Positions 9,598 through 32,012 of a stretch of DNA of 40,681 bases are shown piece by piece. The stretch is from positions 1-40,681 of the forward strand of contig JAEZIW010000249.1 in assembly GCA_023436525.1 (NCBI GenBank), given 5' to 3'. The stretch is from Bacillota bacterium (GTDB lineage: Bacteria; Bacillota; Clostridia; Christensenellales; SZUA-584). The translations under genes were made by a program, and so were the position numbers. Position 1 is the stretch's first letter. The number at the start of each line of letters is the position of its first letter. The notes beneath the pieces were generated by a model that searched no databases, had not been told where the DNA came from, and saw only the letters and a program-made list of their open reading frames with translations.

Positions 9598-9599
9598 AT

Positions 9600-10679: not shown

Positions 10680-10685
10680 ATCTCG

Positions 10686-12034: not shown

Positions 12035-14274
12035 GAATCAAATTATATGGGATTGTGCAGGGGGTGGGTTTCCGCCCCTTTGTGGTTAAGCTGGCTTTTT
12101 CTCTGGGACTAACGGGCAAGGTGAAAAACAGCGGCGGATTGTTGGACATCACAGTCTGCGGAACCGCGGCGCAGCTCGACGCATTTCAAAAGCGGCTGTT
12201 CGAGGAAAAGCCGATGAACGCGCTGATCGTGCATTACGAAACAGAAAACAGTCCATACACGTGCGACTCTTCCTTTACCATTGAAACGAGCGGCGAAGCC
12301 GAAGGCCCGGTTTTCATACCACCCGATCTGTGCGTTTGCGACGCGTGCCTTGATGAGCTATCCAACGAACAGGACCAACGGTTTGCGCATCCCTTCATCA
12401 GCTGCATGGCATGCGGCCCGCGATACAGCATCATTGAGGCCGCGCCTTACGACCGTGATACCACAACAATGCGCGATTTTGATATGTGCGATGCCTGCCA
12501 TGCACAATACACAAACCGTGAAGACAGGCGCTTTCACGCGCAGACGATCTCCTGCCACAGCTGCGGCCCTTTTCTTATTTATAAAGACAGCATCGGCACT
12601 GAGACCACGCATGAGACAGCTTTTAACGATGCGGCAAAAGCGCTGCGTACGGGTGGCGTGGTCGCCGTGAAGGGCATCGGCGGCTATCACCTCTGCTGTG
12701 ACCCATTTGACCAAAAAGCGGTGCTGCGGCTGCGTGAGCTGAAAAGCCGTGAATTAAAGCCGTTCGCGGTGATGTTTCCGAACTTGGATGATTTGAGGCA
12801 TTATGCCCTTGTATCGCCGCAGGAGGAAGCGCTGCTGGTCTCCCCCGCGCGGCCCATTGTGCTGCTGAAACAAAAGCAAAATGACCTCGCGTCTGCGGTG
12901 TGCGGCGACAGCCTGCTGCTGGGCGCGTTTCTGCCGTATACACCCCTGCAGGCCATGCTGGTGCAAGCAGCCGGCCCTTTGGTGATGACAAGTGCGAACG
13001 TATCGGACGCGCCTATCGTCAAGGATGACGCATCCATGCTTGCATGGACGGGCCTTGATGGCGTGCTGTACAACACGCGGCGCATCGCCGCGCGTGTGGA
13101 CGATTCGGTGGCGAAGGTTTTGGCGAATAAGACGCAGATGATTCGCCGGTCCCGCGGGTACGCGCCGTTGCCGGTTATACTACGCGGCGAGCCCCAAGGT
13201 GCGTTGTTTGCCGCAGGCGGACAGCTCAAATCCGCGTTTTGCCTCGCGTCCGGGCGGTTCGCGTATGTGGGGCCGCACATCGGCGATCTGGATAACGATG
13301 ACTGTATCCGCGCCTATCGTGAAAGCCTCGAGCGGCTGCAACAGCTGCTGCGTTTGTCGCCCAAGCTGGCCGTATGCGATATGCACCCCGGCTATGCGTC
13401 CACGGCACTGGCGGAGGAAACGCAGCTGCCGCTGCTGCGCGTGCAGCACCATCATGCCCATATCGCATCCGTGATGGCGGAACACGGTCTTGATGAGCCG
13501 GTTATCGGCGTTGCTTTTGACGGTACGGGCTGGGGATGTGACAACGCCGTATGGGGCGGGGAGTTTCTTGTTTTCAGGGCTAACACCTTTGAACGGGCAG
13601 GGCACATCAAAGCCGTACGTTTTTTAAGCGGTGACGCGGGCATGAAGGATGCGGCTAAGAGCGCCATGTGCTACCTGCACGATGCGGGACTGGACGCACA
13701 TATCCGCGATGACCGCTGGCCGCTGATACGGGCAGCGCTGGATAATGATGTGAATGTGCACCGCAATTCCGGCATGGGGCGTCTGTTCGACGCGGTGAGC
13801 GCGATACTGGGTGTCTGCACGTACAACCGGTACGAAGGCGAGTGTGCCATTCTGCTGGAAAATCTCGCGGCGCGGGCGCTGGCACAAGGCATGGAACCCG
13901 CCCAAATGGCATTTGCGGTTTCACAGAAGGATGGTATACTGGTGGCGGATGCTACGCCGGTGATTTTGACGCTGACCCAATGCGGCAAAAGCCAAGAAGC
14001 GCTGGCGCTGGGGTTCCACCAAGCAGTGTCAAACATGGTCGTCGATATCTGCGTTCGATTGCGCGAGCAGACGGGCATCGGCTCGGCGGCGCTCTCCGGC
14101 GGTGTGTTTCAGAACGCCGTGCTGTTTGAGGATATACTGAGTAAGCTGACTGCGAAGGGCTTCGATGTATATACCAATGAGATAGTGCCGCCCAACGACG
14201 GGGGAATCAGCCTGGGGCAGGCGCAGATTGGCCTTTGGCACTTAAACGGAAAGGAATACAAACCATGTGTATAG
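11998..14274 (+). CDS. hypF: carbamoyltransferase HypF
   Basis: Acylphosphatase-like N-terminus (GIVQGVGFRPF), two Zn-finger pairs (CDACLDEL...CMACGPRYS; CDACHAQY...CHSCGP), and YrdC-like and Kae1-like domains. The start could instead be TTG 12031. Confidence 0.92.
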   Translation: MDKREEKQPRGLRIKLYGIVQGVGFRPFVVKLAFSLGLTGKVKNSGGLLDITVCGTAAQLDAFQKRLFEEKPMNALIVHYETENSPYTCDSSFTIETSGEAEGPVFIPPDLCVCDACLDELSNEQDQRFAHPFISCMACGPRYSIIEAAPYDRDTTTMRDFDMCDACHAQYTNREDRRFHAQTISCHSCGPFLIYKDSIGTETTHETAFNDAAKALRTGGVVAVKGIGGYHLCCDPFDQKAVLRLRELKSRELKPFAVMFPNLDDLRHYALVSPQEEALLVSPARPIVLLKQKQNDLASAVCGDSLLLGAFLPYTPLQAMLVQAAGPLVMTSANVSDAPIVKDDASMLAWTGLDGVLYNTRRIAARVDDSVAKVLANKTQMIRRSRGYAPLPVILRGEPQGALFAAGGQLKSAFCLASGRFAYVGPHIGDLDNDDCIRAYRESLERLQQLLRLSPKLAVCDMHPGYASTALAEETQLPLLRVQHHHAHIASVMAEHGLDEPVIGVAFDGTGWGCDNAVWGGEFLVFRANTFERAGHIKAVRFLSGDAGMKDAAKSAMCYLHDAGLDAHIRDDRWPLIRAALDNDVNVHRNSGMGRLFDAVSAILGVCTYNRYEGECAILLENLAARALAQGMEPAQMAFAVSQKDGILVADATPVILTLTQCGKSQEALALGFHQAVSNMVVDICVRLREQTGIGSAALSGGVFQNAVLFEDILSKLTAKGFDVYTNEIVPPNDGGISLGQAQIGLWHLNGKEYKPCV

Positions 14275-14492
14275 CGGTGCCCGGGCGGGTTCTTTCTATA
14301 TCGAATGGCCGAGCCAAGGTGGATTTTTCGGGCAACATTGTAGAGGCCGACATGCGGCTGGTAGATGCTGAGGCGGGCGACTACGTGCTGGTGCACGCGG
14401 GCTGCGCCATAGAGGTGATGAAACCGTCGCAGGCGCAAGATCTGGCTGCCCTGCTGGAAGAGATCGGGGCACTTGCGAATGAGCGGCCTTGA
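14265..14492 (+). CDS. hypC: hydrogenase assembly chaperone HypC
   Basis: The start was moved to ATG 14265 to give the invariant N-terminus MCIAVPGRV. It overlaps the hypF stop. Confidence 0.88.
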   Translation: MCIAVPGRVLSISNGRAKVDFSGNIVEADMRLVDAEAGDYVLVHAGCAIEVMKPSQAQDLAALLEEIGALANERP

Positions 14493-15516
14493 ACACATGC
14501 TCGGCTCTGTTCGAGAATACAATGGCCCGCCGGTGCGCATTATGGAGGTTTGCGGAACGCATACCGCAACGGCAGCCAAAGCAGGGCTGCGCTCAATGCT
14601 GCCCGCAGGCATACGGCTCATATCCGGGCCCGGATGCCCTGTTTGTCTGGCTGCGTCCGCATATATCGATAGGCTCTGCGCTCTCGCGGCGGACAATTGC
14701 ATCATCGCGTCGTTTGGCGACCTTCTGCGTGTGCGCGGTAAGAACGGGAGCCTGCTGGACAGAAAAGCGCACGGCGCGCGCGTGGATATGGTCTACTCGC
14801 CCTTGGATGCGCTGAAGCTGGCGCAGGCTCATCCCGAAAGCACCGTGGTGATGGCTGCGGTGGGATTTGAAACCACCGCCCCGGCTTATGCGCTGGCGCT
14901 GGAAACGGCGCAGACGGAAAACATAACAAACTTTAAACTGTTGACCGCGCTTAAACGCTTAATCCCTGCAATGGAAACGCTTTGCGCTGACGACAGCATA
15001 GATGCGTTTATTACGCCGGGGCATGTGGCCGCCATCATCGGCAGCGACGTATTTTTGTCGCTGGCGGAGCGCTTCCGAAAGCCAATGGTGGTAACAGGTT
15101 TTAAGGCTGAGGATATGATAGCGGCAATCTGCCTGCTTCTTTCAAAGCTGAACATGGGTTATGCGGCCAATCTTTACGGAGAGGTTGTTCGTCCTCAGGG
15201 CAATACAAAGGCGCTCAAATTGTTAAACAAATACTTCGAGCCGTCAGAAGCCTACTGGCGCGGCCTGTCGGTGATACCGGACTCTGGCCTTTATTTAAAG
15301 ACCGACTATGCGGCATTTGATGCCGGAAGCCACGGTTTAACAGACAACGCGGCAGACAGCGGCGGCTGCCGCTGCGGCGAGGTGCTGACCAGCCGAATCG
15401 CCCCGCATGAATGCCCGCTGTATGGCAAGACCTGTACGCCAGAGAATGCGTTCGGGCCATGCATGGTCACGGCCGAAGGGGCCTGCGGCATACGGTATGC
15501 CGGGGAGGATTTTTAA
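14473..15516 (+). CDS. hypD: hydrogenase maturation factor HypD
   Basis: MEVCGTHT, GPGCPVC and PGHV motifs. An alternative start is ATG 14497. Confidence 0.9.
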   Translation: MRMSGLEHMLGSVREYNGPPVRIMEVCGTHTATAAKAGLRSMLPAGIRLISGPGCPVCLAASAYIDRLCALAADNCIIASFGDLLRVRGKNGSLLDRKAHGARVDMVYSPLDALKLAQAHPESTVVMAAVGFETTAPAYALALETAQTENITNFKLLTALKRLIPAMETLCADDSIDAFITPGHVAAIIGSDVFLSLAERFRKPMVVTGFKAEDMIAAICLLLSKLNMGYAANLYGEVVRPQGNTKALKLLNKYFEPSEAYWRGLSVIPDSGLYLKTDYAAFDAGSHGLTDNAADSGGCRCGEVLTSRIAPHECPLYGKTCTPENAFGPCMVTAEGACGIRYAGEDF

Positions 15517-16493
15517 TGATTAGAATGGCACATGGCAGCGGCGGCAAAGAGACAGAGGCGCTTGTGAAAAGCATATTCCTTAAGCATTTTCAGAATAATG
15601 CGCTGGGGCGTCTCGAAGACGCCGCCGTGATTGAAATGAACGGCAAAGCCGCCTTCACCACCGATTCGTTTGTTGTCACCCCGCTGTTCTTCAAGGGCGG
15701 CGACATCGGGCGGCTCGCTGTATGCGGCACTGTGAACGACCTGCTGATGATGGGCGCACGGCCTCAGTATCTGTCCGCCGGGTTTATCATTGAGGAGGGG
15801 TTGCCAATGGAAGCGCTTAATAATGTGGCGGCATCCATGGCACACACGGCTGCGGAGGCAGGCGTGGCTATCGTGGCGGGTGACACCAAAGTGATCGAAG
15901 GCCGGGGCGGACTGTATATCAACACATCCGGCATCGGTACGATTCCAAACGGGCGCGATATCGGCGCGGCACAGTGTACTTCAGGCGATGTGATACTGGT
16001 GTCAGGGAACCTCGGGGACCACCACGCCTGTATACTGAGCGCGCGAATGAACATTGAGAACGGCATTGCGTCGGACGCGATGCCGTTGAACAGGCCGGTA
16101 AACGCTCTGCTGAGCTGTGGTGCGCACGTGAAGGCGATGCGCGACGTGACGCGCGGCGGACTTGCAACGATATTAAATGAGCTGTGTGCAGCCTCGGGCA
16201 CAGGCGCGATTCTGGAAGAAGTGTCGCTGCCCGTATCGTCGCAAACGGCGGCATTCTGCGAAATATTAGGGCTGGATTCGTTATATATGGGCAATGAGGG
16301 CAAGTTCGTCGCCATAGTAAAAGGCGACGACGGCTCAAAGGCGCTGGATGCACTGAGGGGCACACCGGAAGGGCGTTCCGCCATGATAATCGGACACATG
16401 ACGGATGGAAAAGGCGTTACACTGCATACGAAACTTGGCGGGCGGCGCAGACTGAGCGTGCTGACAGGCGAGGGCCTGCCGCGCATCTGCTGA
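15516..16493 (+). CDS. hypE: hydrogenase maturation factor HypE
   Basis: The start was moved to ATG 15516 (MIRMAHGSGG), sharing TAATG with the hypD stop. AIR-synthase-like fold, ending in the characteristic C-terminal PRIC. Confidence 0.9.
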   Translation: MIRMAHGSGGKETEALVKSIFLKHFQNNALGRLEDAAVIEMNGKAAFTTDSFVVTPLFFKGGDIGRLAVCGTVNDLLMMGARPQYLSAGFIIEEGLPMEALNNVAASMAHTAAEAGVAIVAGDTKVIEGRGGLYINTSGIGTIPNGRDIGAAQCTSGDVILVSGNLGDHHACILSARMNIENGIASDAMPLNRPVNALLSCGAHVKAMRDVTRGGLATILNELCAASGTGAILEEVSLPVSSQTAAFCEILGLDSLYMGNEGKFVAIVKGDDGSKALDALRGTPEGRSAMIIGHMTDGKGVTLHTKLGGRRRLSVLTGEGLPRIC

Positions 16494-17713: not shown

Positions 17714-18577
17714 TTATTCGGCGTCACCTTGCGCAGACTCTTCATCCGCCTCGAACGCATACTGCTCCGCAAAGCTCGTTTTTTGGCCTCTGAAGTGAAA
17801 GCCAATCAGCGTGTCTAAATTCACGTTATGTATGCTGTTAAATATGTTGCTGTCAACAGACGGATTCGACAGACGCAGCTTTTTAATCAACTGCTTTGTC
17901 TCCTGCCGTTTTGAACCCATACCCCCGTCGTCCAGCACACAATTTTCCGTTAACCGACAGGCACACTGAATAAACTTTAAATCGTTGTAATTCTTCCAGG
18001 CAACGATATCCTTTTCCTTCACACGGTACATCGGGCGGATTAACGCCATGCCCTCCCAGTTCGTGCTTTTGAGCTTTGGCATCATCGTTTTAAACTCACC
18101 GTTGTAAAACAGGCTCATCAACACCGTTTCAATCACATCGTCAAAATGATGCCCCAGCGCAATTTTGTTACACCCGAGCCGTTTCGCCTGCTTGTATAGA
18201 TACCCTCTGCGCATGCGCGCGCAGATATAACACGGGTATTTTTCGAGCTTGGCGACATAATCAAAAATCGGTGCGGGAAACACCTGTATCGGAATATTCA
18301 GAAACGCCGCATTTTCTTCAATCAGCCGCTTGTTCAAGTCGTTGTAACCCGGGTCCATCACGAGGAAAACCAACTCAAACGGGAACTTGCTGTAACGGTG
18401 AAGCTGCTGCATGCACTTGGCCATCAGCATCGAATCCTTGCCGCCGGACATGCAGACGGCGATTTTGTCGCCTTCTTGAATCAGCTCATAGGCCTCAATG
18501 GCTGAGATGAACTTCTGCCATATCTCACGCCTGTACTTTTTTATAATGCTTCTTTCGGTTTGGGCACAGTCACTCAT
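17714..18577 (-). CDS. ttcA: PP-loop ATPase of the TtcA family (tRNA thiolation-type)
   Basis: PP-loop CMSGGKDS, CYIC (CxxC), GHHFDDVIETVLMSLFYNG, and a second Cys block CACRLTENC. Confidence 0.7.
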   Translation of the reverse strand: MSDCAQTERSIIKKYRREIWQKFISAIEAYELIQEGDKIAVCMSGGKDSMLMAKCMQQLHRYSKFPFELVFLVMDPGYNDLNKRLIEENAAFLNIPIQVFPAPIFDYVAKLEKYPCYICARMRRGYLYKQAKRLGCNKIALGHHFDDVIETVLMSLFYNGEFKTMMPKLKSTNWEGMALIRPMYRVKEKDIVAWKNYNDLKFIQCACRLTENCVLDDGGMGSKRQETKQLIKKLRLSNPSVDSNIFNSIHNVNLDTLIGFHFRGQKTSFAEQYAFEADEESAQGDAE

Positions 18578-19722
18578 AGGGTTCCTCTGTATTTCTCAAG
18601 ACTATCTTTAAGACACTGTATAAACAAGCCAATATCCTCCTCGGTTGTTAAATGGCTGAGGCTGATGCGCAAGGCGGACAATGCCGCCTTCTTGTTATGT
18701 GTCAGCGCGTAGACGGGACGCGAGACCGTCCCCGGTGCACAACAGGCTGACCGCGTCGCGACATAAATCCCCTTTTCGCCGAGACGTGCTTGAATTATAT
18801 CTGTTTTGATGCCCGGCAGGCTTAAGTTGACAATGTGCGGCACCGAGGCTGTGGTGCTGTTGATGAGAACGCCGGGCAGATTTCGCAGTGCAGCTATAAG
18901 CTGAGCATTCAACGCATGAACGGTTTGATAACGCGATTGCAGCTCAGATAATGCGATTTCCAATGCCGCTTCCGCCGCGACGGCCAGCTCCAGCGCGGGT
19001 GTTCCGCTGCGAAACGGCGTACTGCTGATGCCGCCGTGTATCTGCGGCTCCAAAACCACATTCTCGCCGCAAACCAGCATACCGCTGCCGCACAGCCCGT
19101 AAAACTTATGCGGTGCAAACGAGGCAAGGCCGATACCGTTCAGGCTGATTGGAATTTTACCCACAGCCTGTGTTGCATCTGTATGAAACACACAGTGCGG
19201 ACGACCGCTGAGCACAGCCGAAATATCGTTAATCGGCTGCACGATGCCCAGCTCACTGTCTACCCAGCATATTGAAACGAGTATCGTATCCTGACGCAGC
19301 AGCGATTTCAAATGACCGATATCCACTGTGCCGTCGCTATTGAGCTCACAGTAGTCAATCTCAAACCCCTGCTGCTGCAAATAAGCAAGCGGCCCATTCA
19401 CCGACGAATGCTCAAGCGGCGTGGTTATAATATGCTTTCCGTATCGCTTGTTGTTCTCCGCCACGCCTTTAATCGCAAGATTGTTCGATTCAGACGCGCC
19501 CGATGTAAAAACAATCCCGTCCGGCTTGACATGCAAAAGAGCCGCGATTTTCTCTGCCGCTTCCCGAAACCGCGCTTTTGCTGCTTGTCCCGGCGGGTGC
19601 GGCGAATTCGCGTTTGCGGTGAAGCTTTGCGCTGCGGCGATAAACGCGCTTAAAACCCTATCATCCGCAGGTGTATGTGCCGCATAATCGAGATAGATAT
19701 GTTCCTTATTCTTTTGCTGCAT
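18574..19722 (-). CDS. cysteine desulfurase (NifS/IscS-like class-V aminotransferase)
   Basis: PLP-Lys context SFAPHKFYG and active-site loop ATRSACCAPG. The stop overlaps the ttcA-like start (ATGA). The start is uncertain: ATG 19722, 19740 or 19785. Confidence 0.8.
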   Translation of the reverse strand: MQQKNKEHIYLDYAAHTPADDRVLSAFIAAAQSFTANANSPHPPGQAAKARFREAAEKIAALLHVKPDGIVFTSGASESNNLAIKGVAENNKRYGKHIITTPLEHSSVNGPLAYLQQQGFEIDYCELNSDGTVDIGHLKSLLRQDTILVSICWVDSELGIVQPINDISAVLSGRPHCVFHTDATQAVGKIPISLNGIGLASFAPHKFYGLCGSGMLVCGENVVLEPQIHGGISSTPFRSGTPALELAVAAEAALEIALSELQSRYQTVHALNAQLIAALRNLPGVLINSTTASVPHIVNLSLPGIKTDIIQARLGEKGIYVATRSACCAPGTVSRPVYALTHNKKAALSALRISLSHLTTEEDIGLFIQCLKDSLEKYRGTL

Positions 19723-20323
19723 CAGCTTGTTCCCGGCCATCGGAGGCGGCATTTCCAGCAATGCCAATTTGCTCTGCCACAGCACGCATTCCCATAATCG
19801 TATGCTCTATCAAATCATCAAGTGTCATGCCCAGCATAGCGGCGCCGTCCAAAATCACATCGCGGTTGATGTTCGCGGCGAAGCCCTTCTGCTTCCATTT
19901 CTTCTTGACAGAGCTGACCTCCATATCCAGTATGCTCTTGCTCGGGCGCATCAGTGCCGTTGCTGCAATCAACCCGGTCAGTTCGTCCGTTGCGTACAGC
20001 ACCCTTTCCATCACATGCATTGGCTGCACATCATTAACCAGTTTGTACCCGTGACTCTCAACGGCACGCATATAGTCCTCCGGATAGCCCTCCGGCTCCA
20101 GCAGTTCACGCACCTTTTGGCAATGCTGCTCGGGGTATTTTTCAAAATCGATATCGTGAAGCAGCCCGATGACCGCCCACTTTTCGGCTTCCTCTTCGCA
20201 ATAAATGGCCGCAAAATGCCGCATGACGGCTTCCACCGTCAACGCGTGGCGCAATAAGCTTTCCTGCTTCACATGTGTGTACAACACCTTTAAAGCCGAT
20301 TCTCTGTCTGGCACAAATGCCAT
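19706..20323 (-). CDS. HD-domain metal-dependent phosphohydrolase
   Basis: HD motif GLLHDIDFEKYPEQH. The start was moved to ATG 20323 (MAFVPDRES), preceded by AAAGGA. Confidence 0.7.
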   Translation of the reverse strand: MAFVPDRESALKVLYTHVKQESLLRHALTVEAVMRHFAAIYCEEEAEKWAVIGLLHDIDFEKYPEQHCQKVRELLEPEGYPEDYMRAVESHGYKLVNDVQPMHVMERVLYATDELTGLIAATALMRPSKSILDMEVSSVKKKWKQKGFAANINRDVILDGAAMLGMTLDDLIEHTIMGMRAVAEQIGIAGNAASDGREQADAAKE

Positions 20324-24374: not shown

Positions 24375-24409
24375 AAAGAGCACTTATCATTGCAAGTGCT
24401 CTTTTTTTG
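24375..24409 (+). terminator. rho-independent terminator after tetR
   Basis: AAAGAGCACTT (24375-85) pairs with AAGTGCTCTTT (24394-24404) across an 8-nt loop, followed by a T-run. It may also stop the convergent minus-strand operon that ends at 24508. Confidence 0.75.
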
Positions 24410-24507: not shown

Positions 24508-24780
24508 TCAGCAATATCTGTCTCGCCGGGGCTTTATTTGCCCGGGCAGCGATACGATGGCATGATGTACCGCTTTGTGCCGCGTGATGCAGCCCCGCGC
24601 CGTATCGATGTGTTCAGGGCTCACGAGCAGCGACATGCCGCAGGAAAGCTCCCCCAGTATCGAGCGCGGCGCAGGCGCAATGCGGTGAGGTATCCCCTCT
24701 GCCAGCAATAATTCATGCAGCGCCATGCCGTGGGTATAGTTTTCAAAGAGTATGTAGTATTGCAACCCCGGTTCAGTCAT
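24508..24780 (-). CDS. DUF3343-type putative Se/S carrier protein (copy 2)
   Basis: YILFENYTHGMALHELLLAEGIPHRIAPAPRSILGELSCGMSLLV. The start ATG 24780 overlaps the stop of the upstream reductase gene by 8 nt. Confidence 0.65.
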   Translation of the reverse strand: MTEPGLQYYILFENYTHGMALHELLLAEGIPHRIAPAPRSILGELSCGMSLLVSPEHIDTARGCITRHKAVHHAIVSLPGQIKPRRDRYC

Positions 24781-26047
24781 TAAGCATTTCAATAAACGCC
24801 CCAATACGGGTGCGCAGCTGCTCGGCATCTGTGTCGGTGTAATCCGTTTCGAGGCTTAGTACCGGCACACCGGCTTCCTTAAGCGCCTTCGACACGGAAT
24901 ACTTCTCGGTATCGTACAAACAGCAGAACTTCAAGCTGCAATCAATGACGCCGTCAGCCTTGTATTCCTTCACCATGCGCAGTATATCGTCGATGCGGCC
25001 GGTATTGGGCGTAAAACACGCGCAGTTGTTCTTCATGTACCGTTCGGATAGCGCCATGTACTGCCCTTCAAGCGTGGTCTTCGTCTCGTCCACCAGATTC
25101 TCAAAATAACGGGTGCCGGTGCACATCTCCTCGCAGACCACCGCTGCGCCGCTGGTTTCAATGATGTTGTGCAGCTTCCAATTGGGCACTGCCAGCGGCG
25201 TACCGGTCACAAGTATACGCTTGGTTCCTGCGGGTACCACGCTGACACCGTCCTTAATCCGCTGCTCCAGCTCGTCTGCCAGCCGGTTGCACATCTTTGC
25301 GCAGCGCTCCGGGTCGTCGAAGAAGGCGATCTGTATCATCAGCAGCGCGTCCCGGCCGGAGATTGGCAGGCATTCTGATTTGCGTGCGTCATACACACGC
25401 TGGATTGCTTTGCGTTTCTCGTTGACGATTCGGATGGCATCGGCCAGCTTTTCGACCGTGATTTCGTTGCCGGTGAGTTTCTCAACCACCTTGGCGAAAT
25501 CCGCAATTTCGTCCTTCCACTTGAGAATATCCTTCTCCCGCTTCATCTGCGGAACGTCCATAATATGCATGGGCACGTCGTCGCCCAATATCTCATACGC
25601 CTTCTTTTTCCCGTCGCAGGTGGTCTCCCCCACGTACATATCGGCGATTCGGAAGAACGGACAGGTTTTGCCCAGCCGCGCGCCCACCGACGCCTTAATT
25701 AACGAACAAGTGCTCTTGGGCAGCACCGCCTCGCCCGCAGGCACCCAGAACTGCGAGCCGCCGCAAAGGCCGGTCACAATGCCGTTTGCCGCAATAACCA
25801 CTTCATCCGGCACAAACACACAGAACGTACCGAACACCTTGCGCCCCTGCTTCTGCGCTTCCACCAGCTCTGCGGGGCGTATGCCGTGCACCTCCGAGAT
25901 CACCAGATCCCAAAAGTCCATGCCTGTCGGTCTATTCTCCTGCGACATAAAAACATCGCCCACTGCGGTGGGCAGCACCTGACACAGCAAATCGTGTGTC
26001 TCCAGGTCCATACCAAGGTGCTTCCACATTTGTACGTAATCCGACAT
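24773..26047 (-). CDS. single-subunit 2-hydroxyacyl-CoA-dehydratase-fold protein (HgdB/BcrC family; double-cubane-cluster reductase type)
   Basis: A 424-aa Cys-rich protein (FCVFVPDE, GLCGGSQ, KSTCSLIKAS, GKTCPFF, GETTCDGKKK, CEEMCTGTRYF, NNCACFTP, KFCCLYD). There is no partner alpha/beta subunit, and a cognate activase gene lies in the same operon. Confidence 0.65.
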   Translation of the reverse strand: MSDYVQMWKHLGMDLETHDLLCQVLPTAVGDVFMSQENRPTGMDFWDLVISEVHGIRPAELVEAQKQGRKVFGTFCVFVPDEVVIAANGIVTGLCGGSQFWVPAGEAVLPKSTCSLIKASVGARLGKTCPFFRIADMYVGETTCDGKKKAYEILGDDVPMHIMDVPQMKREKDILKWKDEIADFAKVVEKLTGNEITVEKLADAIRIVNEKRKAIQRVYDARKSECLPISGRDALLMIQIAFFDDPERCAKMCNRLADELEQRIKDGVSVVPAGTKRILVTGTPLAVPNWKLHNIIETSGAAVVCEEMCTGTRYFENLVDETKTTLEGQYMALSERYMKNNCACFTPNTGRIDDILRMVKEYKADGVIDCSLKFCCLYDTEKYSVSKALKEAGVPVLSLETDYTDTDAEQLRTRIGAFIEMLND

Positions 26048-26079
26048 TCAAACTCCTCCTCACATATATTAACGGTCTG

Positions 26080-26316
26080 TCAAACCATCAGCTCAAACCA
26101 TCCGTCTGTCTCAATACCGGCCTCGTGTGCCGTCCTTTCTACCGCATCCCGCGCATCCGGCGGCGCGCTCCACGCCATGCCGCAGCCTGCGGTGATGTCG
26201 CGCGGCACAGGTATCAGCCGCCCGGGTACGTCTCGCTCCGCGCACACCTTTTCCATCGCTATCGCCGCTGTTGTGGTGTGAAACGTTACAATCAGCCGAA
26301 GCTGCTTCATCCTCAT
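26080..26316 (-). CDS. DUF3343-type putative Se/S carrier protein (copy 1)
   Basis: LIVTFHTTTAAIAMEKVCAERDVPGRLIPVPRDITAGCGMAW. The start overlaps the stop of the desulfurase gene (ATGA). Confidence 0.65.
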   Translation of the reverse strand: MRMKQLRLIVTFHTTTAAIAMEKVCAERDVPGRLIPVPRDITAGCGMAWSAPPDARDAVERTAHEAGIETDGWFELMV

Positions 26317-27449
26317 TCCGCCAGCTCCTTGACGGCGGACACCGCCGCATCCACATCCTCAGCTTCGTTAAACCATCCAAAGCTGAACCTCACCGCTCCC
26401 TGCTCCGTGGTGCCGAGCGCCTGGTGCATACGCGGGGCACAGTGTGCGCCGGGGCGTGTGGCAATGCCGTATGCTTGCGACAGCTCATCGGCCACCGCGC
26501 CGGAATCGAAACCGCGTATGTTCAGCGCCACCACCGGTGCGTGCTGAACCGCAGTAAAATCGCCGTATACCGTTGCACCGTCAATCTGCGAAACGCCGTC
26601 CACAAAGCGCCGTGTTAAAAAATCCTCTTTGGCTTGTATGGCTTCGATTCCCACCGAATTGATATAATCCACCGCCGCCGACAGCCCCGCGATGCCGTGC
26701 CCGTTCAGTGTGCCTGCCTCCAGCAGCGTCGGCAGTTGCTCAGGCTGCGTTTGGCTGTACGTCTGCACACCGGTGCCGCCCACCGTCCACGGCCTAATGT
26801 TCACGCCCTCGCGGATGCACAAGCCGCCCGTACCTTGCGGGCCCATCATCGCCTTATGCCCTGTAAAGCAGAGGATATCAATGTTCATCGCTTCCATGTC
26901 AATCGAGGCGCACCCCGCCGTTTGGGACGCATCCACCATAAATAGCAGACCATGTTTCTTTGCAATCCGGCCCACCCGTGCCACATCCACCATGTTGCCA
27001 GTCAGGTTAGACGCGTGCGTGCAAACGATGGCTTGTGTATTGGGGCGAATCAGCTTTTCAAAATCCGCATAATCAATCGTACCGCGCTTATCCGCTGCGG
27101 CAAAGCTTAACTCAACCTGTTTCTCCGCCTGCAGACGATAAAGCGGCCTCAAAACAGAGTTGTGCTCAAGATCAGTTGTTATGACATGGCTGTCAGGCTT
27201 AATAACGCCATTGATGGCGATATTCAAGGCTTCCGTCGCATTGCACGTAAACACCACATGGTCGGCGCGCTTGCAGCCAAACAACGCTGCCAGCTTAACG
27301 CGCGCTTGATAAACGGTGCGCGACGCATCAAGGCTGCTGGCATGCGTCCCGCGTGACGCGTTGCCCAGCGCGTTCATCGCATGCATAACCGCTTGCGTTA
27401 CCTGCGGCGGTTTGCGCAGCGTTGTGGCCGCGTTATCAAGATATATCAC
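26313..27449 (-). CDS. class-V PLP-dependent cysteine desulfurase / selenocysteine-lyase-like enzyme
   Basis: MIYLDNAATT start, PLP-Lys context FTGHKAMMGPQGTGG, catalytic loop ATRPGAHCAPRMH. It overlaps the yedF stop. Confidence 0.8.
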   Translation of the reverse strand: MIYLDNAATTLRKPPQVTQAVMHAMNALGNASRGTHASSLDASRTVYQARVKLAALFGCKRADHVVFTCNATEALNIAINGVIKPDSHVITTDLEHNSVLRPLYRLQAEKQVELSFAAADKRGTIDYADFEKLIRPNTQAIVCTHASNLTGNMVDVARVGRIAKKHGLLFMVDASQTAGCASIDMEAMNIDILCFTGHKAMMGPQGTGGLCIREGVNIRPWTVGGTGVQTYSQTQPEQLPTLLEAGTLNGHGIAGLSAAVDYINSVGIEAIQAKEDFLTRRFVDGVSQIDGATVYGDFTAVQHAPVVALNIRGFDSGAVADELSQAYGIATRPGAHCAPRMHQALGTTEQGAVRFSFGWFNEAEDVDAAVSAVKELAE

Positions 27450-28060
27450 GGCTTGATCACCTTAGCCGCGCCGCTCAGCATCTCGACAATGCTGTACATG
27501 TTGGCGATCTGCCCGACTGCCAGCTTCTCCGTCAAGCCATAAAAATTCAGACAGGTGCCGCAGGTCATAATTTCTACGCCTTGCGCCTCCATGCTTTTCA
27601 GGTCTTCCACGCTGACGGATCCTTCTATGGGGATACTGGCACCGCCGTTGTAGAAAATAATCGTCTTCGGCAGCTCATCGAGCTGAGACAGCGCGTATAT
27701 GAACCCTTTCATCAGCGTCTTGCCCAGTTCGTCGTCTCCGCGTCCCATAACGGCGGTGTCGATAGCCACCACGGTGTTGCCTCTGATATCCGGGACGCAG
27801 GCGGGCTCGGGTTCCGCAGCGTTCGCGTTCGGCAGCGCGGAAACCTCCATGGTAATAACAAAATGCTTGTCGTCCAGCTTTTCGCTCTTCGCCGCATGCC
27901 CCTTGCCCATGGCCAGCCGCATCACGTTCTGCACGGCAATCTCGTTATCCACGTGCACTTCCAGTTCACCGGCTTGCTTCATTCCGCCCAGCGCCTTTGT
28001 CGCTTTGACAACCGGGATCGGACACTGTTCGCCCACCGCGTTTACGATTACCTTTGCCAT
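27446..28060 (-). CDS. yedF: selenium-metabolism protein YedF (TusA/SirA-like N-domain + DsrE-like C-domain)
   Basis: CPxP motif VGEQCPIPVVKATKAL, a linker, then a DsrE-like domain (VVAIDTAVMGRGDDELG ... TCGTCLNFYG). Confidence 0.8.
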   Translation of the reverse strand: MAKVIVNAVGEQCPIPVVKATKALGGMKQAGELEVHVDNEIAVQNVMRLAMGKGHAAKSEKLDDKHFVITMEVSALPNANAAEPEPACVPDIRGNTVVAIDTAVMGRGDDELGKTLMKGFIYALSQLDELPKTIIFYNGGASIPIEGSVSVEDLKSMEAQGVEIMTCGTCLNFYGLTEKLAVGQIANMYSIVEMLSGAAKVIKP

Positions 28061-28129
28061 TTTATTTCCTCCGGTTCATTCGTGTATATATCGGGAAGGC
28101 AGCAGATTCCTTTCCATGCTTCCCGTATC

Positions 28130-28897
28130 TCAGCGTGCTTTCATGGCGCAAAGCGCCGCGCCAACGGCCCCCGCATACCGCCCGTGTTCGTTCGAAATCA
28201 CTTGTGCTGCCAGTGCAGCAGACAGCGCGCCGATGATATAAGCGCTGTCGCACAAGCCGCCTGTCAAACAAACGGCACCGGCACCGCCAAGCAGCCTTTT
28301 GGCCTGCGAAGCCACCTTCTGCACAATCGAATCGACCACCGCGAACGCGATGTTTTCCTTCTTTTCTCCGCGCCCAATCAGGCTGATGACCTCGGATTCG
28401 GCGAAAACCGTGCACATGGAGCTGATAGATGTATCGCGGCCCTGAGCGGCCAGCTCACAGAGTTCCACCGGGCTCACGGCCAGCGTGTTCGCCATCACTT
28501 CCAAAAAGCGGCCCGTCCCTGCTGAGCACTTGTCGTTCATGATGAAATCCTTCACCACGCCGCCTTCAATGCTGATGATCTTGGTATCCTGACCGCCGAT
28601 ATCGATCACCGTTAAATCGCTGCACGAAAAAATCTCACAAGCCCCTTTGGCATGGCAGGTGATTTCCGTCACAGCCTTATCGGCATACGGAACCGCCGCC
28701 CGGCCATATCCGGTGGACACGCAAGGCGTTTGCACTGCATCAATTCCGCTATCCTTCAATTTTATACGGATCGCTTCCGCCGTATCCACGCTGCTCCAGC
28801 CGGTTGGCTGTACGAATTGCAGCAAAAGCTTCCGGCCTTCATACATCACCGTTGTTTTGGCACAGGTCGATCCGATATCAATCCCGATGTATTTCAT
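28130..28897 (-). CDS. BcrAD/BadFG/HgdC-family ATP-dependent activase ([4Fe-4S] electron-transfer ATPase)
   Basis: Actin-fold ATPase signatures MKYIGIDIGSTCAKT, DIGGQDTK, DKCSAGTGRFLE. ATG 28897 follows GAGGG. The GTG at 28903 is less likely. Confidence 0.8.
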   Translation of the reverse strand: MKYIGIDIGSTCAKTTVMYEGRKLLLQFVQPTGWSSVDTAEAIRIKLKDSGIDAVQTPCVSTGYGRAAVPYADKAVTEITCHAKGACEIFSCSDLTVIDIGGQDTKIISIEGGVVKDFIMNDKCSAGTGRFLEVMANTLAVSPVELCELAAQGRDTSISSMCTVFAESEVISLIGRGEKKENIAFAVVDSIVQKVASQAKRLLGGAGAVCLTGGLCDSAYIIGALSAALAAQVISNEHGRYAGAVGAALCAMKAR

Positions 28898-28965
28898 TTT
28901 CACCCTCTGTGACCATTATAAAAACCAATATGAAAATACGCCAATTCAAATATCAGATAGAACAA

Positions 28966-28990
28966 TAGATTCTATCGGTAATAGCGATGA
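28966..28990 (-). promoter_or_regulatory. LysR-type (ATC-N9-GAT / T-N11-A) box upstream of the activase operon
   Basis: The plus strand reads ATAGATTCTATCGGTAATAGCGATGA, with ATC at 28974-76 and GAT at 28986-88. It matches the box at 31031-31057 at 20 of 27 positions and lies upstream of a putative TTGGCG-N18-TATAAT promoter (28944-28915). Confidence 0.5.
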
Positions 28991-29007: not shown

Positions 29008-29904
29008 TTAAAATGTTCTTAAGTGATTCAATATGTATTCGCGGAAGGCTTTGGCTGTGTTTGTCAGCCTGCGGTCTTTGGGGGTTATCATATAAAGGCA
29101 GCGCACTGTGCTCTTTCCGTCCAGCGGAAAACAAAGCACATTTTGAGCCATCCTTGCGGCCAATTCGGATACGATGGCGACACCCAGCCCCTGCGCCACG
29201 GCGCGCAGAATGGTGTCGTGGTTGTCCATACGCGCCACAACATGAATGTTTTCTGTGCGTATGCTGTTTTCGCACAGGAACTTGTCGACAGCCTGCTGCG
29301 TTCCGGATCCCAGCTCACGGAAAATCAACGGCTCACCAAGCAGCGCATTGCCGCTTGCCCCTGCACTTTTCTGCGTCCGGTATTTCTCGCTATCCGGGGT
29401 CAGCAGCACCAGATTGTCTTCACGGAGCAGATCGTAAACAAGCTCCTTGCGGTTCATCACTGCGCCCACAAAGCCAATCTGCGCGTCACCGTCCAGCACC
29501 AAATCGTGAACGCTTGTGCTGTCTCCGCCGCGCAGCGTAAACCGGCACTGCGGCATCTCTTGTGCAAATCCGGCAATCAGTTCAGGCAGCAGGTAACTCA
29601 TCGGAATCGTGGAAGCCGCGAGTACCAGCTCCTGCGACGTCCGTTCCTCAAGCTCCTTTGAAAGCTGGTCACAGCTTTGGAGAATGGCTTTGGCATGAGC
29701 ATAAACGCGCCGTCCTTCTTCCGTCAGAATAATCTTGCGCTTGCCGGTACGCACAATCAACGGCACACCGATGTCCTTCTCCATAGCGGCCACGTGGCCG
29801 CTGATGGTCGATTGTGCCAGATACAATTTGTCTGCCGCAGCGGTGAAACTGCCGTTCTCAACAACAGCGGCAAATGCCTCCAGCTGTTTCAGATTGTAGT
29901 TCAT
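29008..29904 (-). CDS. LysR-family transcriptional regulator
   Basis: HTH: MNYNLKQLEAFAAVVENGSFTAAADKLYLAQSTISGHV. The start ATG 29904 lies 4 nt after the selD stop, so the gene is probably co-transcribed with selD. Confidence 0.88.
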   Translation of the reverse strand: MNYNLKQLEAFAAVVENGSFTAAADKLYLAQSTISGHVAAMEKDIGVPLIVRTGKRKIILTEEGRRVYAHAKAILQSCDQLSKELEERTSQELVLAASTIPMSYLLPELIAGFAQEMPQCRFTLRGGDSTSVHDLVLDGDAQIGFVGAVMNRKELVYDLLREDNLVLLTPDSEKYRTQKSAGASGNALLGEPLIFRELGSGTQQAVDKFLCENSIRTENIHVVARMDNHDTILRAVAQGLGVAIVSELAARMAQNVLCFPLDGKSTVRCLYMITPKDRRLTNTAKAFREYILNHLRTF

Positions 29905-29908
29905 CACA

Positions 29909-30946
29909 TCACTCCAAAATGATTCTGTTGCCGCCGCTGTACGCACATACCCTCCCGATGCGCTGCGCGGACGGAACGCATGCCTTCAGCGCCTCAAGCA
30001 GTGCATCAGCATCTTTTGGGCTGACGCAAATCACCAGCCCGCCGGATGTCTGCGGGTCAAACAGCAGATCGGCCTTTTCCAGCGGAATGTCTCCCTGTTC
30101 CACGCAAGCCTCGGCAAAGCTGCGGTTGCGGTACATACCGGCGGGAAGCACGCCCATCCGGGCAAGTTCAATAGCTTCGGGAATCATGTCAATGCCGTTG
30201 ACATCCACGCGAATCTGTACATCGCTGCCCTGTGCCATCTCCAGCAGATGCCCCATCAGGCCAAATCCGGTTACATCCGTGCACGCGTGAACATCAAATT
30301 TTATCATCGTATCCCTTGCCGGCTTGTTCAGCGTTGTCATCAACCCGAAGGCGAGCCTCTCTGTTTCTTCGCTGACGAGCTGCGCCTTCATCGCGGATGT
30401 CAGCACGCCAATGCCGATCGGCTTCGTCAGCAGCAACACGTCTCCAGGCCTCGCGCCGGCGTTCGTCAGCACCTTATCAGGATGCACAAACCCGGTCACT
30501 GCCAAGCCGTATTTGGGCTCCTCGTCGTATATACTGTGCCCGCCGGTAATCAGCGCCCCGGCTTCATACACCTTATCATAGCCGCCCCTCAATATTTCAT
30601 GAACCGTTTCCTTGGGCATGTCTTCCGGCACAGCCATGATGTTAAGCGCCAATTTGGGTTCTCCGCCCATTGCGTAGACATCCGACAGCGCGTTCGTCGC
30701 AGCTATGGCACCAAACGTATACGGATCGTCCGCAATCGGCGGGAAGAAATCAACCGTCTGCACCAACGCCAAGTCATCGCTGATTTTATAGACGGACGCG
30801 TCATCACTGCGTTCAAACCCGACCAATAGATTCGGGTCGTTATGAACTTTAATATCCTCCAAAAGCTGCGACAGCACACCGGCTCCCACTTTTGCCCCGC
30901 AGCCGGCGCACTTGGCCAGCTTCGTCAGCTTGATATCTTCTTTCAA
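29909..30946 (-). CDS. selD: selenide, water dikinase (selenophosphate synthetase), Cys-type
   Basis: N-terminal LTKLAKCAGCGAKVG (compare E. coli GAGCGCK) and an AIR-synthase-like fold. The start was moved to TTG 30946, 7 nt after GGGGAGG. The ORF-track start at 30976 has no RBS. Confidence 0.88.
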   Translation of the reverse strand: MKEDIKLTKLAKCAGCGAKVGAGVLSQLLEDIKVHNDPNLLVGFERSDDASVYKISDDLALVQTVDFFPPIADDPYTFGAIAATNALSDVYAMGGEPKLALNIMAVPEDMPKETVHEILRGGYDKVYEAGALITGGHSIYDEEPKYGLAVTGFVHPDKVLTNAGARPGDVLLLTKPIGIGVLTSAMKAQLVSEETERLAFGLMTTLNKPARDTMIKFDVHACTDVTGFGLMGHLLEMAQGSDVQIRVDVNGIDMIPEAIELARMGVLPAGMYRNRSFAEACVEQGDIPLEKADLLFDPQTSGGLVICVSPKDADALLEALKACVPSAQRIGRVCAYSGGNRIILE

Positions 30947-31032
30947 TTCAGCACCTCCCCTGGCGAAACAAGACAATTAATCGATTCCACATAATCATAT
31001 CATAAAAATGGAGAAAACGCCAAAACGGCCGA

Positions 31033-31057
31033 TAAATTCTATCGGCATTTTCGATAA
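31033..31057 (-). promoter_or_regulatory. LysR-type (ATC-N9-GAT) box upstream of selD
   Basis: The plus strand reads TAAATTCTATCGGCATTTTCGATAA, with ATC at 31041-43 and GAT at 31053-55. It overlaps the dyad GCCGATA-N5-TATCGGC (31028-31046) and lies 17 nt upstream of a putative TTGGCG-N18-TATGAT promoter (31023-30994). Confidence 0.5.
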
Positions 31058-31396
31058 CTTACAGCCAGTTTATACGGTTGCCTTTGATATGAGCATATAT
31101 CAGATAGCGAGAATTAAAAGAAATGGTGCCGGCACAGGAACAATGGTCGATGTGCATCCTCTTATTTGGTTAACAATGACGACCAAATCGTTATATAACC
31201 ACTCTTAGATGACATTAATGAAATTTGATGAAATGAAAAATAGATCATGAGCAAGCATAGCGATAATACTACAAAAGAACGAGATACATTCAATGCAAAA
31301 AATATTGCTCTGCCCAAAATCATAACACGAATCTATGATTTATCTGTTGTTTGTTTTGATACAAGACAAGACTCATTGAGCGTAAAAAAGCCGTCT

Positions 31397-31927
31397 TTAC
31401 ATCTCTTTTCGGTTTGTTTTTTTGATCGTTTCTTCAATCGTATTCAGCAGTTCCCGCTGCTTTGGCAGCATCATACGTTTTGGCGTTCGCTTCAGCATGT
31501 CGGTGCGCGCTGACATAAGCTTATCTGAAGACGCATATGGCAAAAGCGGCGCACAAAGATATTCCGAAATACTGAGGTACCAATCCGTTGTCGTTTTCTC
31601 TCGTCTTGGTTTTGGTGCCAGCATAATATCGAGCGCCTTAGCCGCAATAGCCTCGGACGCATCGGGTGTTTTGTTTTTCATATTTTCCAAAACAGCAGCC
31701 ATCTTTGCAACAATACGCTGAACTTCGCTTAAAAAGGCCTCATTCACCGGCTGAGTTGTCAGCGGATCAAAACCGGAAAACCATTTTTTAAACAAGCGGG
31801 TTATCCGCTGCCTCGATTTTGGCTCTTCCGTGTCCGCTTGCGCGTAGCTAGAATAGACGTCTTTTAAGCTTTCTATCAAACGGGCTACCTCTTGTTCATG
31901 CGTATCTGGCCGGCGCACTTTCTCCAT
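31397..31927 (-). CDS. hypothetical protein (176 aa, predicted helical, Lys/Arg-rich C-terminus)
   Basis: ATG 31927 is preceded by GAGGAGGAG. The longer ORF to 31999 would run through a terminator hairpin. I recognised no family. Confidence 0.5.
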   Translation of the reverse strand: MEKVRRPDTHEQEVARLIESLKDVYSSYAQADTEEPKSRQRITRLFKKWFSGFDPLTTQPVNEAFLSEVQRIVAKMAAVLENMKNKTPDASEAIAAKALDIMLAPKPRREKTTTDWYLSISEYLCAPLLPYASSDKLMSARTDMLKRTPKRMMLPKQRELLNTIEETIKKTNRKEM

Positions 31928-31971
31928 CGCAGGCTCCTCCTCAATACTGATTTTCCCCGCTCCGAACCCTT

Positions 31972-32012
31972 TGTAAACCAAACATAGCCGTGGAGCCATG
32001 CCGCCGGCTATG
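31972..32012 (-). terminator. rho-independent terminator after rpiB
   Basis: On the minus strand, CATAGCCG and CGGCTATG flank a 14-nt loop, followed by TTTGGTTT. Confidence 0.6.

Follow-up and report, generated by a model that had tools for sequence, protein, structure and literature searches.

The 40,681-nucleotide contig JAEZIW010000249.1 of a Bacillota bacterium (Clostridia, Christensenellales, SZUA-584; assembly GCA_023436525.1), hereafter the window, carries a six-gene operon at 24508-28897, in which a double-cubane cluster protein (DCCP) and its activase are encoded together with YedF, a class-V pyridoxal-phosphate (PLP) enzyme and two small proteins of the DUF3343 family. The selD gene and a gene for a LysR-type regulator of the LysR_Se group are located directly upstream. 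The DCCP belongs to one clade of this family, which is distinguished by a cysteine in the N-terminal lid, Cys22, and by a DUF3343 partner that ends in a cysteine, and the operon has two operator-like sequences in common with selD. The DCCP and its activase are probably a working part of selenium trafficking rather than a dehydratase of coenzyme A (CoA) esters. More specifically, the locus may constitute a LysR_Se-controlled selenium-supply module in which the two proteins provide the reductive step, a proposal to which we give slightly less than an even chance.

Since 2018, DCCPs have been characterised structurally and mechanistically as nitrogenase-like, ATP-driven reductases. They require MgATP and an activase, dithionite or Ti(III) citrate alone cannot reduce the cluster, and they reduce acetylene, azide and hydrazine, but their physiological substrate is not known (PMC9351452, PMC7317905). 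Class I is defined by an N-terminal helical extension that shuts the CoA funnel, while class II consists of YjiM-type proteins. In the crystal structure, the CoA funnel is blocked by this lid, with two narrow channels remaining (PMC7317905), which in class-I DCCPs are too narrow for CoA esters (PMC9351452, PMC7317905). In the operon described here, the question of DCCP function meets a second one, i.e., how bacteria pass scarce and reactive selenide to SelD amid sulfide.

The operon was analyzed by profile searches with the hidden Markov models (HMMs) of Pfam and NCBIfam/TIGRFAM, the curated bit cut-off of each model serving as the criterion for membership. The six open reading frames (ORFs), all on the minus strand, have the same coordinates as in a preliminary description of this DNA, and the identities proposed there were confirmed for all six genes, with scores above the curated cut-off wherever a curated model exists. 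The DCCP scores 411 bits with PF06050 and 491 bits with NF040772, the model for the "double-cubane-cluster-containing anaerobic reductase" (cut-off 350). The activase scores 167 bits with PF01869 and 217 bits with TIGR00241 (cut-off 125). It matches HgdC (PDB 1HUX, E = 3e-48) and the activase of a DCCP, DCCP-R (7YYL_E, E = 1.5e-35), and it has Cys124 and Cys162 at the positions of the two residues that bind the bridging [4Fe-4S] cluster. YedF scores 209 bits with TIGR03527 (cut-off 110) and has its CPxP motif at Cys13 (Cys13-Pro-Ile-Pro). The class-V PLP enzyme, with PLP lysine Lys199 and catalytic cysteine Cys337 (GAHCAP), scores 432 bits with TIGR01977, the EF2568/SclA family (cut-off 377); it is filed as a member of this family and not as SclA itself, because its score with the SclA "exception" model NF040779 is below the cut-off. 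Both DUF3343 proteins pass the cut-off of 25 of PF11823, currently named "Se_S_carrier", with 84 bits for the copy that we call a-type and 52 bits for the b-type copy, the cysteine loops of which read AGCGMAW and LSCGMSL, respectively. Upstream, SelD scores 410 bits with TIGR00476 (cut-off 125) and has a Cys-type active site (KCAGCGAK); its gene probably starts with a TTG codon behind a GGAGG ribosome-binding site. The regulator gene begins 4 nt past the selD stop codon, and its product scores 276 bits with NF040786 (LysR_Sec_metab, cut-off 250).

The preliminary description had also depicted the six genes as joined by overlaps or short gaps. This is borne out by a 69-nt gap between the activase and yedF genes, 4-nt overlaps of the gene for the PLP enzyme with yedF on one side and with the gene for the a-type DUF3343 protein on the other, a 32-nt gap before the DCCP gene, and an 8-nt overlap of the gene for the b-type DUF3343 protein with the end of the DCCP gene, including its stop codon. 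The coordinates of all features are listed in Table 1.

Table 1. Features of the operon and of the adjoining selD-lysR unit in the window.
Feature	Coordinates	Strand	Basis
ATP-dependent reductase/activase (DCCP-R or HgdC type)	28130..28897	-	PF01869, TIGR00241, PDB matches
YedF, TusA-like and DsrE-like domains	27446..28060	-	TIGR03527, PF01206, PF02635
SclA-family (EF2568-type) group II cysteine desulfurase/selenocysteine lyase-like PLP enzyme	26313..27449	-	TIGR01977
DUF3343 a-type carrier	26080..26316	-	PF11823
Class-I double-cubane cluster protein (DCCP), 424 aa	24773..26047	-	NF040772, PF06050, 6ENO/7YYL match
DUF3343 b-type, reductase partner	24508..24780	-	PF11823
selD, selenide water dikinase	29909..30946	-	TIGR00476
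lysR (LysR_Se regulator)	29008..29904	-	NF040786, PF00126, PF03466
Operon promoter region: box 1 (CCGATAGAATCTAT, 28965-28978), box 2 (CTATCTGATAT, 28950-28960), TTGGCG-18-TATAAT (28944-28915)	28915..28978	-	
selD promoter region: box 2 (CTATCTGATAT, 31097-31107), box 1 (31032-31045), TTGGCG-18-TATGAT (31023-30994)	30994..31107	-	
Terminator-like hairpin between the operon end and a convergent TetR gene	24375..24404	.	Consensus scan only

The reductase is identified as a class-I DCCP, for which an [8Fe-9S] cluster and ATP-dependent reduction are predicted. It is 48% identical to the crystallised DCCP of Carboxydothermus hydrogenoformans (PDB 6ENO/7YYL; E = 1e-138, residues 3-422), and the alignment with 6ENO is free of gaps from residue 3 onwards, which shows that the N-terminal lid of class I is present. 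The seven-cysteine motif of DCCPs comprises six cluster ligands and one non-ligand cysteine adjoining the cluster (PMC7317905). In the window protein, the motif consists of Cys76, Cys95, Cys114, Cys144, Cys309, Cys342 and Cys375, with Cys95 as the non-ligand residue. These cysteines correspond one-to-one with those of 6ENO, with which two further conserved cysteines are shared, and they are fully conserved in 80 orthologues. The latter are the best 80, with at least 69% identity, of at least 587 relatives of the reductase found in one scan of 185,579 species genomes. The operon contains a single PF06050 gene and no gene for a second subunit. Thus, the preliminary description was correct in recognizing a double-cubane protein in the combination of a lone subunit of the HgdB fold with an activase.

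The most distinctive residue of the reductase is Cys22. It is found in all 80 members of the clade of the window protein and in none of the 118 members of the clade of the crystallised DCCP, 116 of which have a leucine at this position. Ten class-II paralogues lack it as well, as the entire region is missing from them. Furthermore, no lid-bearing representative of the whole family, taken at 50% identity, was found to carry a cysteine at position 22. The residue is located in the N-terminal lid, one helical turn past His18-Asp19 and before Pro26, three residues that are invariant in both clades.

In ten of the related loci, which are designated here by L numbers, a second DCCP paralogue is encoded a few kb from the main one (L047:10528-11850, L007:6872-8041, L044:7367-8530, L012, L026, L030, L052, L062, L073 and L076), mostly in the same operon or selenium island. 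Three of these paralogues were scanned and found to be lid-less proteins of ~384 aa with NF040772 scores of 499-543 bits, i.e., YjiM-like proteins of class II. All ten have a cysteine at position 283 and a valine instead of a cysteine at position 344. Possibly, the two DCCP classes work side by side in such selenium loci. Among the representatives at 50% identity, fusions of DCCPs were also observed, i.e., with the activase in both orders, as tandem DCCPs, with an FHA domain and with a PucR-type helix-turn-helix domain (P0367, P0417, P0369, P0388, P0390, P0440 and P0376); the latter suggests that a DCCP-like domain can act as a sensor in a transcription factor. A homologue of 624 aa, P0082, which was suspected to be a fusion as well, carries only an unrelated N-terminal extension and was set aside.

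The two DUF3343 proteins represent different types. The a-type protein has the single cysteine of the family, Cys45 in AGCGMAW, and no C-terminal cysteine. In related loci, its gene adjoins that for YedF or for the PLP enzyme, and no a-type copy has a terminal cysteine. The b-type protein contains, besides Cys47 (SCGMS), a tail that ends in ...RRDRYC-COOH, with Cys90 as the very last residue; translation likely starts at Met17 of the ORF of 106 codons, giving a product of 90 aa. In most loci, the b-type gene is positioned directly 3' of the reductase gene; in some, it occupies another place of the same operon. The tail motif, R-[DN]-[RK]-[YF]-C-COOH, is present in 75 of the 80 loci; of the other five, four encode a variant tail and one lacks a b-type copy. 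Moreover, both Cys47 and Cys90 are invariant in 37 database homologues of the b-type protein. In the AlphaFold model (mean pLDDT 79), a domain of β-α-β-β-α-β topology is found, in which the loop that leads into strand 3 bears Cys47, and disorder is predicted for the ~10 residues at the C-terminus (pLDDT around 50 or lower). A Foldseek search with this model revealed only generic PII/ACT-like ferredoxin folds (TM-score ~0.5), and sequence searches of the PDB gave no match for the b-type protein and only noise for the a-type protein.

The four variant tails lack the terminal cysteine and end, for example, in ...RRIPHV, ...HHTW or ...GKSIW (L039:3228-3503, L040:4808-5092, L072:11143-11526 and L079, ~5560-5900); the reductases encoded in these loci have kept Cys22. 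A selenocysteine hidden past the tail cysteine was considered and is excluded by the usage of stop codons at this position (TGA 39, TAG 18, TAA 18). Also, none of the orthologues has exchanged Cys22 or the tail cysteine for a UGA-terminated ORF.

A further link between the reductase operon and selD is found in their promoter regions. The preliminary description had reported the same LysR-type box upstream of both units, and this box is real: box 1, CCGATAGAATYTAT, occurs in exactly two copies in the 40.7 kb of the window, one upstream of each unit, whereas 0.38 copies would be expected by chance even if two mismatches were allowed. In addition, a second element, the 11-mer CTATCTGATAT (box 2), was found solely in the same two regions, with a chance expectation of 0.00. 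Each pair of boxes adjoins a promoter-like site, which has the form TTGGCG-18-TATAAT at the operon and TTGGCG-18-TATGAT at selD. In related genomes, both boxes stand out as phylogenetic footprints. At selD, box 1 forms the core of a palindrome, CCGATA-N5-TATCGG, that is kept in L001-L003, and at the operon promoter a block of ~45 nt between divergent flanks is identical in L001 and L002. In the distant loci L084-L088, the operator sequence of the window was not found, and other palindromes are present there instead. These shared operators suggest that the operon and selD are co-regulated, and they are candidate binding sites of LysR_Se. The selD operator palindrome (GCCGATA-N5-TATCGGC, 31028-31046) was also called by the terminator scan, on the plus strand, as a hairpin with a T-run. 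Antisense transcription might thus meet a terminator-like element in the same sequence.

The gene association extends far beyond chance. In the related loci, ORFs were called in six frames and homology was assigned by phmmer with the window proteins, and neighbours were counted only in loci with enough flanking DNA (n = 50 or n = 41). The activase gene is located within 5 kb of the reductase gene in 49 of 50 loci, a gene for an SclA-like enzyme of the TIGR01977 family is found in 39 of 50, with family membership checked for three types of arrangement, and yedF is near the reductase gene in 20 of 50. Within 10 kb, selD is found in 11 of 41 loci as against ~0.7% expected for a random gene, which is roughly 40 times chance, and any dedicated selenium gene (selD, selA, selB, yedE, yedF or the LysR_Se gene) is found in 15 of 41. 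In Coriobacteriia-type loci, selA, selB and yedE also adjoin, the latter in 4 of the 80 loci. The order of the genes varies in about ten ways with the association kept. Examples, in which d stands for DUF3343, Act for the activase and NifS for the PLP enzyme, are SelD-LysR-Act-YedF-NifS-d-DCCP-d, SelD-YedF-d-Act-NifS-DCCP-d, NifS-DCCP-d-Act, and DCCP-Act-DCCP2-NifS-d-YedF adjoining selA-selB-selD. Since the association outlives rearrangement, which is a classical signature, the neighbours appear to be functionally coupled.

The same picture emerged from the opposite direction. A reverse search that started from three distant homologues of the small protein led in each of the five places inspected to an operon for the activase, the NifS-like enzyme, the DCCP and DUF3343 with a divergently transcribed regulator gene, and the regulators of three such minimal operons, which have no selD nearby, pass the LysR_Se model with 270-319 bits (cut-off 250). 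Thus, the conserved core consists of the SclA-like enzyme, the DCCP, the Cys-tailed DUF3343 protein and the activase, whereas YedF and selD are frequent but facultative. On this point, the module of the preliminary description has to be amended. No further conserved partner, such as a ferredoxin or a transporter, was found among the greedily selected, non-overlapping ORFs of the related loci; lineage-specific housekeeping neighbours, e.g., genes for an ECF transporter, truA and an H+-PPase gene, were observed. The 80 loci derive from Clostridia, Coriobacteriia, Megasphaera and a few metagenome-assembled genomes (MAGs) labelled Bacteroidota, Melainabacteria or a methanogen. Four loci in the MAGs of Methanocorpusculum, Bacteroidaceae, Alloprevotella and Melainabacteria (L025, L062, L070 and L071) are typical of Clostridia or Coriobacteriia, which points to mis-binned MAGs or, alternatively, to a module that was transferred horizontally.

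The selenium-related context is a property of one clade. In four of four loci of the clade of the crystallised DCCP, from Carboxydothermus islandicus, Thermincola potens, Desulfosporosinus youngiae and Carboxydocella, only the DCCP and its activase are present. The C. islandicus protein is 96% identical to 6ENO. DUF3343, the SclA-like enzyme, YedF, LysR_Se and selD, all of which are found in the window clade, are absent from these loci. The C. hydrogenoformans DCCP and DCCP-R do resemble the window pair in the lid, the seven motif cysteines, and the adjacent ASKHA-type activase with both cluster cysteines, but no function can be transferred from them, because the natural substrate of the crystallised enzyme is not known. 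Taken together, Cys22, the tail cysteine of the partner and the setting among selenium carriers define one subfamily of DCCPs, and the link of the DCCP-activase pair with selenium that the preliminary description had drawn holds for this clade and not for DCCPs in general. In C. islandicus (L081:2688-9510), the DCCP-activase pair is followed by gcvT, gcvH, gcvPA, gcvPB and lipoate-related genes. This context differs from that of the window clade and may have a bearing on the function of the crystallised enzyme itself.

Parts of this association have been noted before. Haft built the NF040772 model, noted that DCCPs co-occur with SelD, with 955 of 970 NF040772 proteins in SelD-positive assemblies as compared with 38% of assemblies overall, and suggested the processing of selenium compounds or a Se-bridged cofactor (bioRxiv 10.1101/2022.07.06.499078). 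The preliminary description had named two outcomes that would refute it, i.e., that the module is just as common in genomes that lack selD, and that the HMMs fail to place the DCCP and the activase in their families. The former is not borne out by these preprint numbers for NF040772 proteins, nor the latter by the profile searches. The same report makes no mention of DUF3343, YedF, cysteine desulfurase or LysR and found no sequence signature that separates DCCP subgroups (bioRxiv 10.1101/2022.07.06.499078), whereas Cys22 and the Cys-tailed partner constitute such a signature. The context discussed there is an SAO (selenocysteine-assisted organometallic) locus with an ABC transporter and a MerB-like gene, which is not found here: no MerB-like gene and nothing resembling the sao cassette of nine genes, with the MerB-like SaoL and the ABC transporter, is present among the annotated main ORFs of the window, the segment 35110-40443 being left out. 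Besides hydrogenase, hyp and housekeeping genes, the annotated ORFs include a single ABC importer, of the methionine type, for which an NlpA lipoprotein (1848-2756) and an ATPase with a NIL domain (3440-4453) are encoded.

On the basis of comparative genomics, a role in selenium trafficking was proposed earlier for YedF, DUF3343 and LysR_Se (Lin et al., 2015; PMC5322559). Table 1 of that study lists for Slackia a "CoA-substrate-specific enzyme activase" and a "2-hydroxyglutaryl-CoA dehydratase subunit" as STRING neighbours of YedE, YedF, LysR and DUF3343, without discussing them (PMC5322559). The gene set described there, in which YedF, an SclA/EF2568-type lyase, DUF3343 with a conserved cysteine, LysR_Se and YedE are associated with selD, resembles that of the window, but the models contain no reductase and do not divide DUF3343 proteins into Cys-tailed and tail-less types. 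SclA of Enterococcus faecalis is a lyase that prefers selenocysteine and is encoded in a selD operon (PMC13188914). The structural papers on DCCPs discuss neither genomic context nor selenium. No relevant paper was found on a link between genes for dehydratases or activases and selD or selenophosphate, and nothing describing this module was found in full-text searches. In view of the reports of Haft and Lin et al., the novelty claimed in the preliminary description was overstated. There appears to be no earlier description of the operon as such, of its confinement to one DCCP clade, of the operators that it has in common with selD, of the carrier with the tail cysteine, or of Cys22.

How could the components cooperate? 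We infer the following route, in its chemistry as well as in the order of the carriers. The SclA-type PLP enzyme would remove selenium from selenocysteine as an enzyme-bound perselenide, formally Se(0), which would be passed along the cysteines of YedF and the a-type DUF3343 protein. On reaching the b-type DUF3343 protein, it would be held on or between Cys47 and Cys90 as a perselenide or selenotrisulfide. The flexible, basic tail would then enter one of the narrow channels of the reductase, past Cys22 in the lid and the non-ligand Cys95, where the ATP-energised [8Fe-9S] cluster would reduce the bound selenium to HSe-, and SelD would convert the latter into selenophosphate. The idea that the reductase acts on a carrier-bound chalcogen was already put forward in the preliminary description and gains support from the Cys-tailed DUF3343 protein and Cys22, while the chemistry and the chalcogen species stay as conjectural as before. 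Energetic considerations are consistent with this scheme. Based on tabulated values for E0(Se/H2Se) of about -0.40 V and a pKa of 3.9, we calculate a potential of about -0.7 V for Se(0)/HSe- at pH 7 and 1 M, and of about -0.55 V at 1 µM selenide, as compared with -0.27 V for S(0)/HS-. Because the selenium couple is far lower than the sulfur couple, an ATP-boosted electron makes sense for zero-valent selenium but not for sulfur.

The b-type protein can be compared with DsrC, the small partner of the dissimilatory sulfite reductase DsrAB. Of the two conserved cysteines of DsrC, one forms the tip of a flexible C-terminal arm, which enters the active site of DsrAB with the chalcogen bound in a trisulfide-type adduct. 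The resemblance would be one of function only: the b-type protein has a PII-like ferredoxin fold and shows no homology to DsrC or TusE in the PDB sequence and Foldseek searches, and the cofactor and the ATP dependence of the reductase differ from those of DsrAB. Extending the scheme, we tentatively suggest that the Cys22-clade DCCP is the missing physiological selenide generator of anaerobes, which would reduce zero-valent selenium presented by a swinging-tail DUF3343 protein to HSe- for SelD; this we consider rather doubtful. In a bolder variant, which seems very unlikely to us, selenium would occupy the bridging position of the cluster itself, either transiently or permanently.

Several observations weigh against a selenide-generating function. 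The location of Cys22 on the way into a channel is predicted from its place in the sequence. The PLP enzyme reaches only 372 bits with NF040779, the cut-off of which is 525, and the family that contains SclA also includes enzymes acting on cysteine. The 80 genomes on which the neighbourhood counts are based are not phylogenetically independent, and in 26 of the 41 loci with full flanks, dedicated selenium genes are absent within 10 kb. In Pfam scans of ten long DCCP-containing representatives, no fusion of a DCCP to a sulfur- or selenium-relay domain was seen, and the literature holds no experiment that ties any DCCP to selenium. Furthermore, thiol-bound perselenides are reduced in vitro by ordinary thiol or NADPH systems, and thus an ATP-driven step is not obviously needed. 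Finally, the invariant core is compatible with sulfur chemistry, too, or with the maturation of a cofactor.

The latter would entail that the SclA-like enzyme and the Cys-tailed DUF3343 protein deliver the bridging chalcogenide, sulfide or, following Haft, selenide, to the cluster of a reductase whose substrate lies outside selenium trafficking. A core consisting of a NifS-family enzyme, a reductase, a small cysteine protein and an activase indeed resembles nif-type assembly genes, selD and YedF are merely facultative neighbours, and a Se-bridged cofactor could account for the presence of 955 of 970 NF040772 proteins in SelD-positive assemblies (bioRxiv 10.1101/2022.07.06.499078). Yet, the operon contains no scaffold of the NifU, IscU or Suf type, and the operators that it has in common with selD point to SelD. 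The 8-nt overlap, which implies 1:1 translational coupling, the Cys tail and the lid cysteine look more like those of a turnover partner than of a factor needed only once for assembly. In addition, the crystallised DCCP was reportedly produced heterologously with its full [8Fe-9S] cluster without such helpers (the 2018 work of Jeoung and Dobbek), and helper genes are absent from the loci of its clade. Hence, we consider maturation unlikely. We assign a similarly low probability to the reductive cleavage of C-Se or Se-Se bonds in a free small compound, such as methylselenol, dimethylselenide, selenocyanate or colloidal Se(0), in which case Cys22 and the DUF3343 tail would catch the product and hand it to YedF and SelD. 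Such a reaction has a parallel in the ATP-dependent, nitrogenase-like C-S cleavage in sulfur salvage. The narrow channels of class I suit small molecules, acetylene, azide and hydrazine are reduced, the potential that we calculate for Se(0)/HSe- is very low, and carriers that act as product acceptors fit the cysteine features equally well. However, no gene for a transporter, a methyltransferase or any substrate-specific function is conserved with the core, yedE being found in only 4 of 80 loci, and the near-constant presence of a selenocysteine-lyase-type enzyme would be left unexplained.

Alternatively, the module might handle sulfur in a persulfide or polysulfide relay with the reductase, in which case the link with selD would reflect a shared anaerobic lifestyle and carriers that do not discriminate between sulfur and selenium. 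TusA, DsrE, class-V desulfurases and DUF3343 are families of sulfur relays, DUF3343 is also found in organisms that lack SelD and has no selenium-specific branch (PMC5322559), the PLP enzyme fails to reach the cut-off specific for SclA, and the majority of core loci have no selenium gene nearby, as mentioned. These arguments are countered by the LysR_Se-family regulator and the operators shared with selD, by the adjoining selD, selA, selB and yedE genes in several independent arrangements, by the 955 of 970 proteins in SelD-positive assemblies against a background of 38%, and by YedF, which passes the selenium-specific cut-off of TIGR03527. Moreover, at -0.27 V, S(0)/HS- needs no ATP-energised electron. 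We regard a sulfur module, therefore, as quite unlikely. A conventional 2-hydroxyacyl-CoA dehydratase or a pair like that of benzoyl-CoA reductase, merely adjoining selenium genes, is hardly credible. The 2-hydroxyacyl-CoA dehydratases and class I benzoyl-CoA reductases do belong to the same PF06050 and PF01869 superfamilies and share the "archerase" principle of ATP-driven electron injection, and many homologues are named "2-hydroxyacyl-CoA dehydratase" in databases. But HgdAB and HadBC are heterodimers and class I benzoyl-CoA reductase has four subunits (two of PF06050, two of PF01869), whereas the operon encodes one subunit, without an alpha/beta pair, that has the seven-cysteine double-cubane motif and the lid closing the CoA funnel. 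The scores with the equivalog models are far below their cut-offs (HadC NF052456, 125 bits against 700; BcrC, BzdN, BcrA, BcrD and BzdQ, 70-120 bits against 313-578), and no genes for CoA-transferases or acyl-CoA metabolism are conserved near the core in the related loci. On the basis of the subunit count, the cysteine motif, the lid and these sub-threshold scores, this assignment was rejected.

Returning to the selenium-supply module, the operon offers a falsifiable pathway, in which a DCCP clade under a selenium regulator is encoded beside a selenocysteine-lyase-type enzyme and a carrier with two cysteines, and it supplies diagnostic residues, Cys22, Cys47 and Cys90. The question of DCCP function thereby becomes directly testable with the existing DCCP assays. 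If DCCPs of the Cys22 clade are indeed the selenide generators of anaerobes, the [8Fe-9S] cofactor would gain its first natural function, and the assimilation of selenium would include a step, not recognised previously, that consumes energy. The module is common in Clostridia and Coriobacteriia of the human and animal gut, cultured strains included, and thus has a bearing on microbial competition for dietary selenium.

Other genes in the window may be mentioned briefly. Upstream of selD, on the same strand, an ORF of 200 codons (31397-31999, minus strand) has no significant match in Pfam or NCBIfam, and, past the operator, the region 5' of selD shows no conservation in L001-L004. At a distance of about 5 kb (17714-19785, minus strand), the operon is accompanied by genes for a PP-loop ATPase (PF01171) and, following it, a second class-V aminotransferase/cysteine desulfurase (PF00266); the pair represents a separate sulfur relay, possibly for tRNA thiolation. 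On the plus strand (1-1281 and 6017-16493), there are a fragment of an [FeFe]-hydrogenase gene, a module for a group-4 (Ech/Mbh-like) [NiFe]-hydrogenase and the maturation genes hypB, hypF, hypD and hypE. These genes mark a strictly anaerobic, ferredoxin-based host, which could supply the activase with low-potential electrons.

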